DNA of 64,000 nucleotides, from the NCBI GenBank assembly GCA_963667285.1, contig OY763326.1, positions 4,152,030-4,216,029 of the forward strand, read 5' to 3'. Position numbers and translations under genes: made by a program. Positions within the stretch are counted from its first letter, which is position 1, and each line of letters begins with the position of its first letter. Under the pieces are notes generated by a model. It was not told the origin of the DNA. It searched no databases and saw only the letters and a list, made by a program, of their open reading frames with translations. Source of the DNA: Alphaproteobacteria bacterium. GTDB taxonomy: Bacteria > Pseudomonadota > Alphaproteobacteria > MPNO01. Shown here piece by piece: positions 33,443 through 36,998 of this stretch.

Positions 33443-33910
33443 ATGGATACTCTGGACACCGAAGCACCGATCACCGATCTCGCCATCGAGCGGGTCATGG
33501 AAATGATCCCGCACCGATACCCGTTTCTGATGATCGACCGGGTATTGGAGCTCGTCCCCGACAAGCGGGCGACCGGCCTCAAGAACGTTTCGATCAACGA
33601 AGCGCATTTTCAGGGCCATTTCGAGGGCGAAAAGGTGATGCCGGGGGTGCTGCTGATCGAAGCGATGGCGCAGACGGCGGCGGTGCTCGTCGTGCACACC
33701 CTGGGACCCGAGTCCGAAGGCAAGCTGGTCTATTTCATGTCGGTCGAAAGCGCCCGCTTCCGCAGGCCCGTGGTGCCGGGCGATGCGGTCCGGGTCGAAG
33801 TGGAGAAGCTGCGCAACCGCGGCAATGTCTGGAAGTTCGGCGGCAGGGCCGTGGTCGAGGGGGTGGTGGTGGCCGAAGCGACCTACACGGCGATGATTCG
33901 GGACAGCTAG
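33443..33910 (+). CDS. fabZ: 3-hydroxyacyl-ACP dehydratase
   Basis: IPHRYPFLMIDR, FQGHF, MPGVLLIEAMAQ. Confidence 0.97.
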   Translation: MDTLDTEAPITDLAIERVMEMIPHRYPFLMIDRVLELVPDKRATGLKNVSINEAHFQGHFEGEKVMPGVLLIEAMAQTAAVLVVHTLGPESEGKLVYFMSVESARFRRPVVPGDAVRVEVEKLRNRGNVWKFGGRAVVEGVVVAEATYTAMIRDS

Positions 33911-33915
33911 GCTCC

Positions 33916-34716
33916 ATGGCCGAGATTCACCCCACGGCGATCGTGGAGTCGGGGGCCGAGCTGGGCGAAGGAGTCGTCGTCGGCCCTTACTGCACCGTCG
34001 CCCCCGAAGCCGAGCTGCACGATGGCGTCCGGCTGGTCTCGCACGTGGTGGTCGCCGGCCGTACGGTGATCGGCGCCGAAACCCGCGTCTACCCCTTTGC
34101 CTCCATAGGAACCCCGCCGCAGGATCTCAAATTCAGGGGCGAGCCGTCCCGGCTGGAGATCGGCACCGGCAACATCATCCGTGAATACGTCACCATGAAC
34201 CCGGGGACCGAGGGCGGCGGCATGCTGACCCGGGTCGGGGATAACGGCCTGTTCATGGTGGGGGCCCACGTAGCCCATGACTGCCGGGTCGGGAACCACG
34301 TTATCCTTGCCAACAACGCGACCCTGGGCGGTCACGTCGCCGTCGGCGATTTCGCGATCATCGGCGGGCTGGCCGCGGTCCACCAGCATTGCCGGATCGG
34401 CGCGCATGCGATCATCGGCGGGGTGTCCGCGGTGGTCCAGGACGTCATCCCATACGGATCCGCCGCGGGCGATCGCGCCCGGCTCGTCGGCCTCAACGTG
34501 GTGGGGCTTCGCCGCCGGGACTTCCCGCGCAACGAAATCCAGGCGCTTCGCACCGCCTACCGGCTGTTGTTCGCCGAAGAAGGCACGCTCTCCGAACGGC
34601 TGGAGGATGTGGCGCGGATGTATGAGGACAACCGGCCGGTGATGGACATCGTGGCGTTCATCCGCACCGATTCGACCCGCGCCATCTGTCAACCCAAGAC
34701 GGGCAATGAGCCCTAG
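33916..34716 (+). CDS. lpxA: UDP-N-acetylglucosamine acyltransferase
   Basis: IHPTAIV, PQDLKF, HVAHDC, GLNVVGLRRR. Confidence 0.97.
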   Translation: MAEIHPTAIVESGAELGEGVVVGPYCTVAPEAELHDGVRLVSHVVVAGRTVIGAETRVYPFASIGTPPQDLKFRGEPSRLEIGTGNIIREYVTMNPGTEGGGMLTRVGDNGLFMVGAHVAHDCRVGNHVILANNATLGGHVAVGDFAIIGGLAAVHQHCRIGAHAIIGGVSAVVQDVIPYGSAAGDRARLVGLNVVGLRRRDFPRNEIQALRTAYRLLFAEEGTLSERLEDVARMYEDNRPVMDIVAFIRTDSTRAICQPKTGNEP

Positions 34717-34984
34717 CCCGCATTTCCCGCCAGGGTCACGGCCTGCGTCGCGCCCGGGCGTTCGTCCCGCCAGGAGCGGGCCGAAGAGCGTAGCGGGGAC
34801 TACGGTCAAGGCCCGCGACGCAGCGGGCGGGCGCCCGGGCGCGACCCGGAGGGCGGCGCTGTCCGGCCGACAGGGTGCGTCGAGGCGCTTGCCCGATGTC
34901 CCCGCATCGCGCCGCGCGCCTCTCCTGCCCTGTCGGCCGGACAGCGCCGCGCAGGCCATGACCCTGGCGGGAAATGCGGGCTAG
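34713..34984. mobile_element. Non-autonomous palindromic element (MITE/RPE-like), 268 bp net, flanked by duplicated CTAG
   Basis: 35-bp TIRs 34713-34747 and 34950-34984 (1 mismatch); deleting one CTAG plus the interior restores ATG AGC CCT AGG ATC GGG GTT (MSPRIGVVAG), a normal lpxI start. Confidence 0.9.
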
Positions 34985-35795
34985 GATCGGGGTTGTCGCC
35001 GGCGCCGGCGACATGCCCGACCGGGTGATCGCGGCATGCCGGGAGCAGGGGCGCGATCCCTTCGTCGTCGGGTTGAAGGATCAGGCCTGCCCGGCGTCTT
35101 TCTCCCGGCCGCCCGACGCCTGGATCCGCCTCGGCGAAGCGGGGAAGGGCGTCGATCTCCTCAAAGCCGCAGGGGCGAAGGAGGTCGTTCTCGTCGGCGG
35201 CGTCAACAGGCCGCCGCTTCGTTCGCTGCGCCCCGATGCCTGGACGGCGCGCCTCCTGCTGCGCGTCGGACGGTCCTATTACCGCGACGGCTCGGTTCTG
35301 AGCGCGATCGCCGCGGCGCTCGAAGCGGAGGGTCTCCGGGTCGTGGCGCCGGAGAGCTTCGCCGCTTCCCTGGCCGCCGAGGCGCGCGCCTATAGCGCAC
35401 GCGCGCCCGACGCGGCGGAACGCGGCGACATCGCGCGCGGCTTCGACGTGGCCCGCGCCCTTGGCTCCCTCGATGTCGGCCAGGCCGTCATCGTCCAGCG
35501 GGAGCAGGTGATCGGGGTTGAGGCGGCGGAGGGGACGGATGCGCTCATCGAACGCTGCGCGGCGCTGCTCTCTCCGGGCGAGGGGGGTGTGCTGGTCAAG
35601 GCCTGCAAGCCGGGGCAGGACATCCGAATCGACCTGCCGACGATCGGGCCGCGCACCGTCTCCGGTGCGGCCCGGGCGGGGCTCGCGGGCATCGCCGTGG
35701 GGGCGGGCAGGGCGCTGATCCTCGACAGCCAGGAGGTGACGCGTCTGGCCGATGCCGCCGGCATGTTCGTCATCGGAATCGGCGAGACGGGGTGA
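34974..35795 (+). CDS. lpxI: UDP-2,3-diacylglucosamine pyrophosphatase LpxI (start codon donated by the inserted element)
   Basis: IGVVAGAG, LDVGQAV, VEAAEGTDALI, QDIRIDLPTIG; between lpxA and lpxB. Confidence 0.92.
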   Translation: MRARIGVVAGAGDMPDRVIAACREQGRDPFVVGLKDQACPASFSRPPDAWIRLGEAGKGVDLLKAAGAKEVVLVGGVNRPPLRSLRPDAWTARLLLRVGRSYYRDGSVLSAIAAALEAEGLRVVAPESFAASLAAEARAYSARAPDAAERGDIARGFDVARALGSLDVGQAVIVQREQVIGVEAAEGTDALIERCAALLSPGEGGVLVKACKPGQDIRIDLPTIGPRTVSGAARAGLAGIAVGAGRALILDSQEVTRLADAAGMFVIGIGETG

Positions 35796-35807: not shown

Positions 35808-36998
35808 GTGGAACCCCTCAAGCCGTCGTTCTTCTTCATCGCCGGAGAACCGTCCGGAGACGAGATCGGCGGCCGCCTCATCGCGGCGCTGCGCGAGGCA
35901 ACCGGCGGGGAGATGCGCATCGCCGGGATCGGCGGCGAAGCGATGGCCGCCGAGGGGCTGGAAAGCCTGTTTCCGATCGAGGAGCTCTCGGTCATGGGGC
36001 TCGTGGAGGTGGTGCCTCGGGCGCCCGGGATCATGCGCCGCATGTCACAGACCGCCCGCGCGATTCGCCGTCTTGCGCCCGACGCCGTGGTGACCATCGA
36101 CGCGCCGGCCTTCGCGAACGGCGTGTGGCGCCGCCTCGGCGAGGTCGACGCCGCGTTGATCCACTATGTAGCGCCGACGGTCTGGGCATGGCGCGCGGGC
36201 CGGGCCCGCAAGCTGGCCCGCAAGATCGACCATCTGCTCGCCCTGTTTCCCTTCGAGCCGCCGCATTTCGCGGCGGAAGGGCTCGACTGCACGTTTGTCG
36301 GCCACCCTGTCCTGGAAACCGGGATCGCCACCGATGACGGGGCTTCCTTCCGGGCGCGCCACGGCATTTCCGCCGGCCCCGTGATTGGCCTGCTGCCCGG
36401 AAGCCGCCGCGGCGAGATCTGCCGCCTCATGCCGGTTTTCGCGGACGCGACGCGACGGATCGCGGAAGCCGTGCCCGCCATCCGGGCGGTGATACCCGCC
36501 GTGCCGGCCCATGCCGCGCTGATCCGCGAGGCTGCCGCCGAACTGCCGGTCCCGGTCACGGTGACCGCCGAGCGTGGGGAGCGCCATGCGGCGATGGCGG
36601 CATGCGACGCGGCGATCGCGGCGTCGGGCACGGTGTCGCTCGACCTCGCCCTCGCCGGCGTGCCGATGGCGATCGCATACAAGCTCAACCCGCTGACCGC
36701 AACGATCCTGCGCCGGATGATCCGCGTCCGTTACGCGACGATCGTCAACCTGGTGCTTGACCGGCCGGCGATCCCCGAGTTTCTTCAGGAGAACTGCACC
36801 GGGGCCGCCCTGGCGGAAGCGGCGCTCCTGCTGTTGCGGGACGAAGGGGCGAGGTGCACGCAGATCGAGGCGACGGCCTCTGCGATCGCCGCGCTGCACC
36901 CTGACGGGGAACGCCCGAGCGCCCGGGCGGCTGCGGCGATACTCGACGTCCTGCGCCACCGGACGGACACGCGCATCGAACAGGGAGCAGTCACATGA
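35808..36998 (+). CDS. lpxB: Lipid-A-disaccharide synthase
   Basis: AGEPSGD, YVAPTVWAWR, FVGHP, LPGSRRGE, ASGT. Confidence 0.96.
   Translation: MEPLKPSFFFIAGEPSGDEIGGRLIAALREATGGEMRIAGIGGEAMAAEGLESLFPIEELSVMGLVEVVPRAPGIMRRMSQTARAIRRLAPDAVVTIDAPAFANGVWRRLGEVDAALIHYVAPTVWAWRAGRARKLARKIDHLLALFPFEPPHFAAEGLDCTFVGHPVLETGIATDDGASFRARHGISAGPVIGLLPGSRRGEICRLMPVFADATRRIAEAVPAIRAVIPAVPAHAALIREAAAELPVPVTVTAERGERHAAMAACDAAIAASGTVSLDLALAGVPMAIAYKLNPLTATILRRMIRVRYATIVNLVLDRPAIPEFLQENCTGAALAEAALLLLRDEGARCTQIEATASAIAALHPDGERPSARAAAAILDVLRHRTDTRIEQGAVT

Follow-up and report, generated by a model that had tools for sequence, protein, structure and literature searches.

The donation of start codons to bacterial genes by small repeated sequences is already known. 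In the available sections of one account, Neisseria REP2 and Borrelia repeats bring a promoter, a ribosome-binding site (RBS) and an ATG, and repeats are fused in frame to host open reading frames (ORFs) internally, at the 3′ end and occasionally at the 5′ end (Delihas 2011, PMC3184786). Here we describe a 264-nt MITE (a miniature transposable element with inverted repeats) that lies between lpxA and lpxI in a 64,000-nucleotide stretch of an alphaproteobacterial genome (the whole stretch is called the window below), and whose lpxI-proximal tip very probably provides the start codon of lpxI. Replacement of a native start by a transposon tip, together with persistence of that tip after the element has decayed, is a new variant of start donation. 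In the open-access literature we found no account of this element, of an IS1380-type MITE donating start codons, or of a transposon tip that replaces displaced starts and outlasts decay of the element.

REP2 resembles the MITE in having an RBS and an ATG at its gene-proximal end; in the MITE, a Shine–Dalgarno (SD)-like motif and an ATG are present on 71 of 82 ends. However, REP2 has the character of a promoter and 5′ untranslated region and, in the passages of that paper devoted to it, is not described as a transposon with terminal inverted repeats (TIRs) and a target duplication (PMC3184786), whereas the MITE has no detected sigma-70-like promoter, donates a start in 5 of 41 copies, and does so with the tip of an inverted repeat. 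Rickettsia palindromic elements (RPEs), RUP/BOX, BRE and QMITE are alike in that a small hairpin repeat joins a host frame without destroying the gene, so far as the accessible portions of three papers describe them (PMC3184786, PMC10969869, PMC5896051). The accessible text of a 2024 MITE review treats in-frame fusions, chiefly of Rickettsia RPEs, and contains no mention of 'start codon' (PMC10969869), and that of a Coxiella MITE paper reports overlaps in functional genes at the 3′ end only (PMC5896051). MITE/ORF fusions in these texts are mostly internal in-frame insertions or 3′ extensions, with 5′ fusions mentioned but not analyzed, whereas in the present family the native start is replaced and the tip outlasts the element.

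Two transposon families are also relevant. Elements of the IS1380 family, for which the available part of one paper reports outward promoters and acceptance of sequences resembling their inverted repeats (PMC9330008), are like the MITE in their terminal nucleotides (10–12 of 14, depending on the copy) and in having CTAG on both sides, but their inverted repeat is ∼14 nt rather than ∼42 nt and they encode a transposase that the MITE lacks. The IS630 family and IS630-derived MITEs such as RUP share the preference for CTAG but differ from the MITE in their ends. Finally, the ATGnnnnnTAG geometry of the junction, in which 5 nt separate the restart ATG from the stop just as in the native arrangement, is that of termination–reinitiation coupling. 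The coupling ORF would in this case be a 92-codon read-through of a transposon, and its translation would unwind a 264-nt hairpin.

The element end at the start of lpxI

The genome analyzed (G000; 5.68 Mb, complete) was compared with the congeneric relatives G001–G011. In the window, lpxA (33916..34716, plus strand; Pfam Hexapep and Acetyltransf_11) ends with a TAG at 34714–34716 that forms part of the left CTAG target duplication copy (34713..34716), and the LpxA protein is therefore unaltered by the insertion. The MITE proper, a near-perfect hairpin and one of 41 genomic copies, occupies 34717..34980 on the plus strand and is followed by the right CTAG copy at 34981..34984. Comparison of its inverted repeats places the left TIR (CCCGCATTTC...) at 34717..34753 and the right TIR, which contains an SD-like motif and a new ATG, at 34944..34980. 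The net insert of 268 nt, comprising the element and the 4-nt CTAG duplication, equals 3 × 89 + 1 and consequently shifts the frame. The native lpxI start codon (34706..34708, plus strand), where five congeneric empty sites read ATGnnnnCTAG, still sits 11 nt ahead of the end of the lpxA TAG but is now cut off from the body of lpxI. It opens instead a 92-codon read-through ORF (34706..34984, plus strand) that crosses the MITE, matches no Pfam family and is a candidate relay ORF.

As now read, lpxI (MRARIGVVAGAGDMP..., MRARIGVVAG) covers 34974..35795 on the plus strand and encodes 273 residues. The read-through ORF finishes at the TAG of the right CTAG copy (34982–34984), which begins 5 nt beyond the new ATG (34974–34976), and the 11-nt overlap between the upstream stop and the lpxI start is thereby rebuilt. 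The final 11 nt of the element plus duplication are ATGCGGGCTAG, preceded by the SD-like GGCGGG (34966..34971, plus strand), recognized from its duplex with the 16S 3′ tail. The N-terminus of LpxI is altered only at residues 2 and 3, from MSPR to MRAR. The in-frame position of the element ATG is a matter of geometry, because this ATG falls in frame for every gene whose reading of the target is xCT-AGx. An earlier reading of the sequence without database searches (the sequence-only reading) had proposed that a 268-nt insert rebuilds both the lpxI start and the 11-nt overlap, and its account matches the window base for base.

That reading had also deduced the empty site, and the deduced form is indeed what most of the relatives contain. 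Among the eight congeneric lpxA/lpxI junctions displayed, ATGnnnnCTAG with the 11-nt overlap is seen in five (G001, G002, G006, G007 and G011), where the native junction is GGGCAATGCCCCCTAG or a near variant. The junction of G005 is without an ATG, and those of G003 and G010 contain sequence resembling the MITE end, as discussed below. Contigs from four sequencing runs (X2, X5, X6 and X7) end at the borders of the MITE; none joins 34716 to 34985 or spans a junction by at least 31 nt. The one search made for RNA runs of this organism returned only a metatranscriptome run with a share of 0.04.

The choice of start codon is narrowly constrained. Upstream, the lpxI frame ends at an in-frame TGA (34959..34961, plus strand; translation P*PWREMRA...), with only CCC TGG CGG GAA between it and the ATG at 34974, and this ATG is the only ATG, GTG or TTG between the TGA and the conserved N-terminus of LpxI. 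The LpxI_N domain covers residues 4–133 (profile positions 1–129; E 3.4e-28) and LpxI_C residues 139–267 (E 8.1e-46). The protein matches Caulobacter crescentus LpxI (PDB 4GGM; E 2.9e-39), with query residues 2–269 on chain residues 4–277, and the alignment begins at residue 2, with RARIGVVAGAGDMP against MRKLGLIAGGGALP. Both results bear out the assignment of the gene to LpxI in the sequence-only reading. A start at the next Met, residue 14, would lose strand 1 and the Gly-rich loop.

Synthesis of lipid A is generally essential. LpxI_C has a single match in the 5.68-Mb genome and LpxH (TIGR01854) has no match in G000, so lpxI should be needed; its ORF is intact. An insertion in the sole gene for UDP-2,3-diacylglucosamine hydrolase would be tolerated because the element ATG supplies the lpxI start. 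The element-borne ATG at 34974 thus very probably serves as the start of lpxI, as had been suggested, with its position as the sole available start, the limits of the domains and the footprints in relatives all pointing the same way.

The surrounding operon has the order fabZ–lpxA–insert–lpxI–lpxB, as given by Pfam searches with the window proteins, with fabZ at 33443..33910 (plus strand; FabA-like, E 3.6e-34) and lpxB at 35808..36998 (plus strand; LpxB, E 7.5e-90). A search for related LpxI loci gave five, all from metagenome-assembled alphaproteobacteria. On the minus strand, a 350-residue ORF at window positions 33907–34959 runs antisense to lpxA and extends into the MITE; according to the codon model, it is a shadow ORF of DNA with 69% G+C and not a gene.

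Element ends at other gene starts

BLAST finds 38 full-length copies of the MITE in G000, and pairing of end motifs finds 41, including short forms of 167–181 nt and long forms of 295–296 nt. CTAG is present on both sides of 25 of the 41 and on at least one side of 39; degenerate flanks are mostly CCAG or CTGG, and one copy is flanked by CCAG on both sides. An ATG facing outward is found on 71 of the 82 ends, and 57 ends are exactly ATGCGGGCTAG. The observation in the sequence-only reading that both TIRs of the lpxI copy bear an outward ATG therefore extends to the family as a whole.

Four further copies in G000 have displaced a native start and now provide the start of a gene, named here by its Pfam match. 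A Hydantoinase_B-like protein of 719 residues has changed from MPSLFDRHV to MRASLFDRHV, with a start codon at the native position in 7 of 7 relatives. An ABC transporter of 609 residues has changed from MSSPHSKG to MRASPHSKG; 9 of 10 relatives are empty at this site, and G010 also has a MITE there. In a DUF2125 protein of 340 residues, MA[RK]KAAFG has become MRARKAAFG, with 9 of 10 relatives empty and a MITE also in G001. A DctQ-like protein of 172 residues had a native TTG start, (M)RASLERL, and now reads MRASLERL; again 9 of 10 relatives are empty, with a MITE also in G003. Where two species share an occupied locus, the two copies are not mutual nearest relatives, and presence and absence follow no single tree; recurrent insertion or gene conversion must therefore be involved. 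A less certain case in G000 is C1:5638413, where the stop codon of one permease gene is occupied by a MITE and the next permease is in frame with the element ATG (MRASRAAPLVQW...); its candidate starts lie at −31, at the element ATG and at +62.

To place these insertions in the context of the genome, copies were excised in silico and genes were called with a codon-usage model trained on G000. CTAG is rare in this genome, with 1281 occurrences in 5.68 Mb as against 51,935 for GATC, and ∼40% of CTAG sequences are stop codons. The site classes cover 39 of the 41 occupied sites and 1217 unoccupied sites, with the lpxI site counted as a stop codon. By this classification, occupied and unoccupied sites respectively number 21 and 487 at stop codons, 13 and 591 in intergenic DNA, 1 and 128 inside genes, and 4 and 11 close to starts. 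That insertions so often fall on stop codons mainly reflects the choice of target. At 9 of the 41 MITE sites (for example C1:380941, 2303407 and 5590523), convergent genes have a palindromic CTAG stop in common and the MITE lies exactly between them. The rarity of CTAG and the decay of its flanks to CCAG or CTGG are what repair of the very-short-patch type would be expected to produce.

The displaced-start class is defined by a native start 4 or 7 nt before CTAG and the frame xCT-AGx, so that the element ATG substitutes in frame. It contains 5 of the 41 copies but only 12 of the 1217 unoccupied sites (Fisher odds ratio 13.9, p = 1.3e-4), and 2 of those 12 are themselves footprints of element ends. 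Copies with a TIR ATG in frame to the downstream gene are accordingly enriched, which was a check suggested by the sequence-only reading. In the other frame, CTA-Gxx, none of the 41 occupied sites and 6 of the 1217 unoccupied ones are start-proximal. Counted together, 5 occupied sites and 2 footprints are found among 17 in-frame start-proximal CTAG sites, as against occupation of ∼3% of stop-codon and intergenic sites. Several native targets resemble the element end, as seen for lpxI (GGGCAATGnnCCCTAG), DctQ (TTGCGGGCCAG) and the sensor kinase described below (GGAAATGGCCTAG).

The relatives indicate what becomes of such insertions. The closest, G003 and G010 (∼92% identical), have no MITE at lpxI and read GGGAAATGCGGGTTAG and ...TTAA. 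This junction is 1–2 changes from the element end, compared with 5 of 17 from the native flank; neither its length nor the 11-nt overlap has changed, the terminal 13–16 nt of the element are kept, and LpxI begins with MRVR or MRVK..., an N-terminus encoded by the element. The simplest reading is that the hairpin was removed by a deletion between the flank CGGGcAATG and the element sequence CGGGaAATG, of the type provoked by palindromes. Several congeners have two or three loci resembling lpxA–lpxI, namely G005 (C6:1236687, C6:1493990 and C2:281772), G003, G011 and G002.

A gene for a sensor kinase shows decay of the right end in stages. G001 has the full element of 272 nt, whereas 85 nt remain in G002, 49 in G007, 31 in G000 and 18 in both G009 and G006; in G003, BLAST detects no remnant. 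All members of this series, G003 included, keep an ATGCG..CTAG/A start (MRARLLRSTTF), and the junction is native in G010, G008, G011 and G005. Similarly, at a gene of the amine-oxidase type with a flavin adenine dinucleotide (FAD)-binding fold, a 20-nt footprint with 18–19 of 20 positions like the element end is present in 3 of 11 species (G000, G003 and G010). It supplies MPARVHVVGAGL directly ahead of the Rossmann motif, and the start in the remaining eight species is a native GTG or TTG. The tip has thus been retained by selection during the decay of all else in the element.

Further solo MITE ends or footprints at predicted gene starts in G000 are found at C1:2357992, 4005519, 4906591 and 2619445, of which the first two are borne out by relatives. 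At C1:4906591, an ABC-permease-like gene has GGGAATGCGGGTTAG at an 11-nt stop/start overlap. Two sites in the genome emptied of copies, 4155933 and 4578456, have the stop/start overlaps ATGCGGCCTAG and ATGCCGGCTAG, which are like the MITE end at 9–10 of 11 positions; the likeness may reflect either ancient footprints or coincidence (p roughly 0.12).

Access to the start codon and competing explanations

Taken together, these observations are best explained by entry of a hairpin MITE into the CTAG formed by the lpxA stop and lpxI codons 3–4. The insertion would have displaced the native lpxI ATG by 268 nt, leaving it out of frame, and LpxI would now be made from the ATG borne by the element. 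Across the family, the element end would act as a portable start module that stays as a gene start after the rest decays. We regard this account as a whole as likely. It must also explain how the start codon is reached by ribosomes. The inverted arms at 34712–34753 and 34944–34985 are 42 nt long and 93% complementary, and the whole element folds as a single hairpin with a minimum free energy of −250.3 kcal/mol (z = −14.8), with none of 100 shuffled sequences folding as well. The ATG at 34974 pairs with 34721–34723 in the 42-bp basal stem; something must therefore open the stem, and ribosomes translating the opposite arm probably do so.

Two routes can be envisaged. Ribosomes finishing lpxA, whose TAG is within the left arm, would open the base of the stem. 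Alternatively, ribosomes would start at the retained ATG at 34706, translate 92 codons across the hairpin, terminate at the TAG that follows the ATG at 34974 by 5 nt and reinitiate. The second route, a relay from lpxA through the element ORF to lpxI as proposed in the sequence-only reading, is plausible. Among the full displaced-start copies (five in G000 and four in relatives), the native start codon is kept in 9 of 9, and the frame that it opens ends 0 nt (seven cases) or 23 nt (two cases) before the end of the element; the stop overlaps or abuts the restart codon in 7 of the 9. In the opposite orientation, the frame from the native start would stop 87–93 nt short of the element end. All five displaced-start copies in G000 have their right end facing the gene, and the sensor-kinase copy of G001 has the same orientation as these five. 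It had been suggested that rescue could work in either orientation given an outward ATG on both TIRs, but none of the five rescues uses the other orientation, although 71 of 82 ends carry the ATG. Three of the five displaced-start copies have no upstream gene ending at CTAG (the nearest is 127 nt off, 51 nt off or divergent), so that at these loci ribosomes can reach the left arm only from the native start.

It is quite possible, if less than an even prospect, that the element ATG is the start but that no relay is involved. Ribosomes terminating at lpxA would open the first 10–15 nt of the left arm and so free the ATG and SD-like motif, or the stem would breathe or be cut by a double-strand RNase, and a 30S subunit would bind the SD-like motif directly. 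This is consistent with the position of the lpxA stop inside the left arm and the pairing of the ATG so near the base of the stem, with the presence of an SD-like motif on the element end itself, and with the element-end remnants that serve as starts even though they have neither a left arm nor a native start. However, it does not account for the three displaced-start copies without an upstream gene ending at CTAG, and it leaves the uniform orientation of the five copies unexplained.

Transcription of lpxI from a promoter inside the MITE, giving a leader too short to form the hairpin and translated from the element ATG, is unlikely. Outward promoters do occur in the IS1380 family, in ISEcp1 and ISPme1 (PMC9330008, in its available part), but they are located in internal sequence of the IS that the MITE lacks, with only the terminal ∼14 nt in common, and the element is ∼75% G+C, nearly palindromic and without a sigma-70-like site. 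Least probable by far is a recent, mildly harmful accident in which the in-frame ATG is a coincidence and LpxI is either poorly expressed or initiated at Met14 or some non-canonical codon: the in-frame ATG is indeed automatic given the target frame, and the lpxI copy, 98.9% identical to another MITE copy, may be young, but a start at Met14 removes the beginning of LpxI_N, and replacements of this kind have become fixed elsewhere, both at other genes and in other species, and outlive the element.

Several observations weigh against the explanation that we prefer, in which the element tip is the start and is probably exposed by translating ribosomes. The ATG and the SD-like motif are paired inside a very stable hairpin (−250 kcal/mol). 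The motif of the lpxI copy is itself average, because GGCGGG pairs with the 16S 3′ tail at −5.9 kcal/mol, which places it at the 45th percentile among 4202 called genes, as against −7.4 kcal/mol and the 65th percentile for the commoner variant GGTGAG. The scan for sigma-70-like promoters at 34500–35100, which gave 0 sites, was limited to the sigma-70 type. The enrichment test rests on the codon-usage gene caller of this analysis, and a count free of gene calls, with ATG at −4 or −7, gives 5 of 78 flanks against 64 of 2434 (p = 0.06). The orientation bias rests on five loci (one-sided p ∼0.03), and no relay is needed for remnants that lack a left arm. The identities of the copies do not distinguish among shared ancestry, recurrent insertion and gene conversion, and the dating of the insertions is ambiguous. 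Lastly, the stop-free ORF that the sequence-only reading had singled out is present, but its openness is not unusual for DNA of this G+C content: the frame is stop-free in every copy of that orientation and in 1775 of 5000 shuffled sequences (35%). Since an open frame is both common by chance and common to all copies, it is not evidence of selection, and we ruled it out as a sign of it.

A broader reading, which we offer tentatively and consider rather doubtful, is that this MITE lineage has become specialized for gene starts. Its tip would be a portable SD and ATG module and its body an open frame in one orientation, so that the native start drives a relay and insertion into the first codons is nearly neutral even in essential genes; slippage would later delete the hairpin, leaving the tip as a permanent start. 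Such specialization would explain why 7 of 17 start-proximal sites have been hit and why the same start sites have been hit in several species. The lpxI insertion shows in what way a transposon can settle in the opening codons of an essential gene and leave the cell viable, and the loci together show that a transposon tip can become a permanent translation start of host genes, here genes encoding transporters, oxidoreductases and a sensor kinase besides a lipid A enzyme. This bears on the annotation of start codons in repeat-rich, GC-rich genomes, on the survival of operon coupling after insertions, and on whether mobile elements evolve harmlessness at particular gene positions. The lpxI locus is also a natural construct for the study of reinitiation across a very stable hairpin.

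Ancestry of the element

There is no transposase gene within the 264 nt of the MITE, and its terminal nucleotides are CCCG[C/G]ATTTCTCA. Intact IS1380-family elements of 1648 bp, encoding NF033539 transposases, are present in G009 (10 copies) and G007; their 14-nt ends read CCCGGATTTCTCAA, and they are flanked on either side by CTAG. Over the first 14 nt, the lpxI copy of the MITE matches the IS1380-type end at 10 positions and two other copies compared match it at 12. We conclude that the element, as judged by these ends and flanks, is a non-autonomous MITE derived from the IS1380 family, with a probable CTAG duplication. Read outward, the parental IS end is ...GAAATCCGGG, with ATC in place of the ATG, whereas the MITE end is ...GAAATGCGGG; the outward ATG thus characterizes the lineage of the MITE. 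IS1380-family elements make a 4-bp target duplication (ISfinder). Formally, the duplication could instead be the TA inside a CTAG target.

An autonomous IS1380 partner in G000 was represented by transposase fragments only (best 199.6 bits, profile positions 210–417), none of which adjoins a MITE-type end, and no pair of MITE-type ends spaced 350–5000 nt apart, as expected of a full-length parent, was found in that genome. The solo MITE ends of G000 are short remnants followed by unique sequence, and the plasmid collection searched held no match to the MITE. An origin from IS630, suggested by the CTAG flanks, was rejected: two IS630-type families of G000 are likewise flanked by CTAG, but their ends, AGCGTATCC... 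and AGCACTATCC..., are unrelated.

At 10 of 38 copies (for example C1:1338693, 1545883, 3969515 and 4886531), the MITE adjoins a second repeat that ends in ...AATCACTAAGTGAACAGTATTG, 3 variable nt and CTAG, and the CTAG of this repeat seems to be a hot target. A MITE and an IS630-type element lie in tandem at one CTAG at 1338693, 2059319 and 2299537 in G000.

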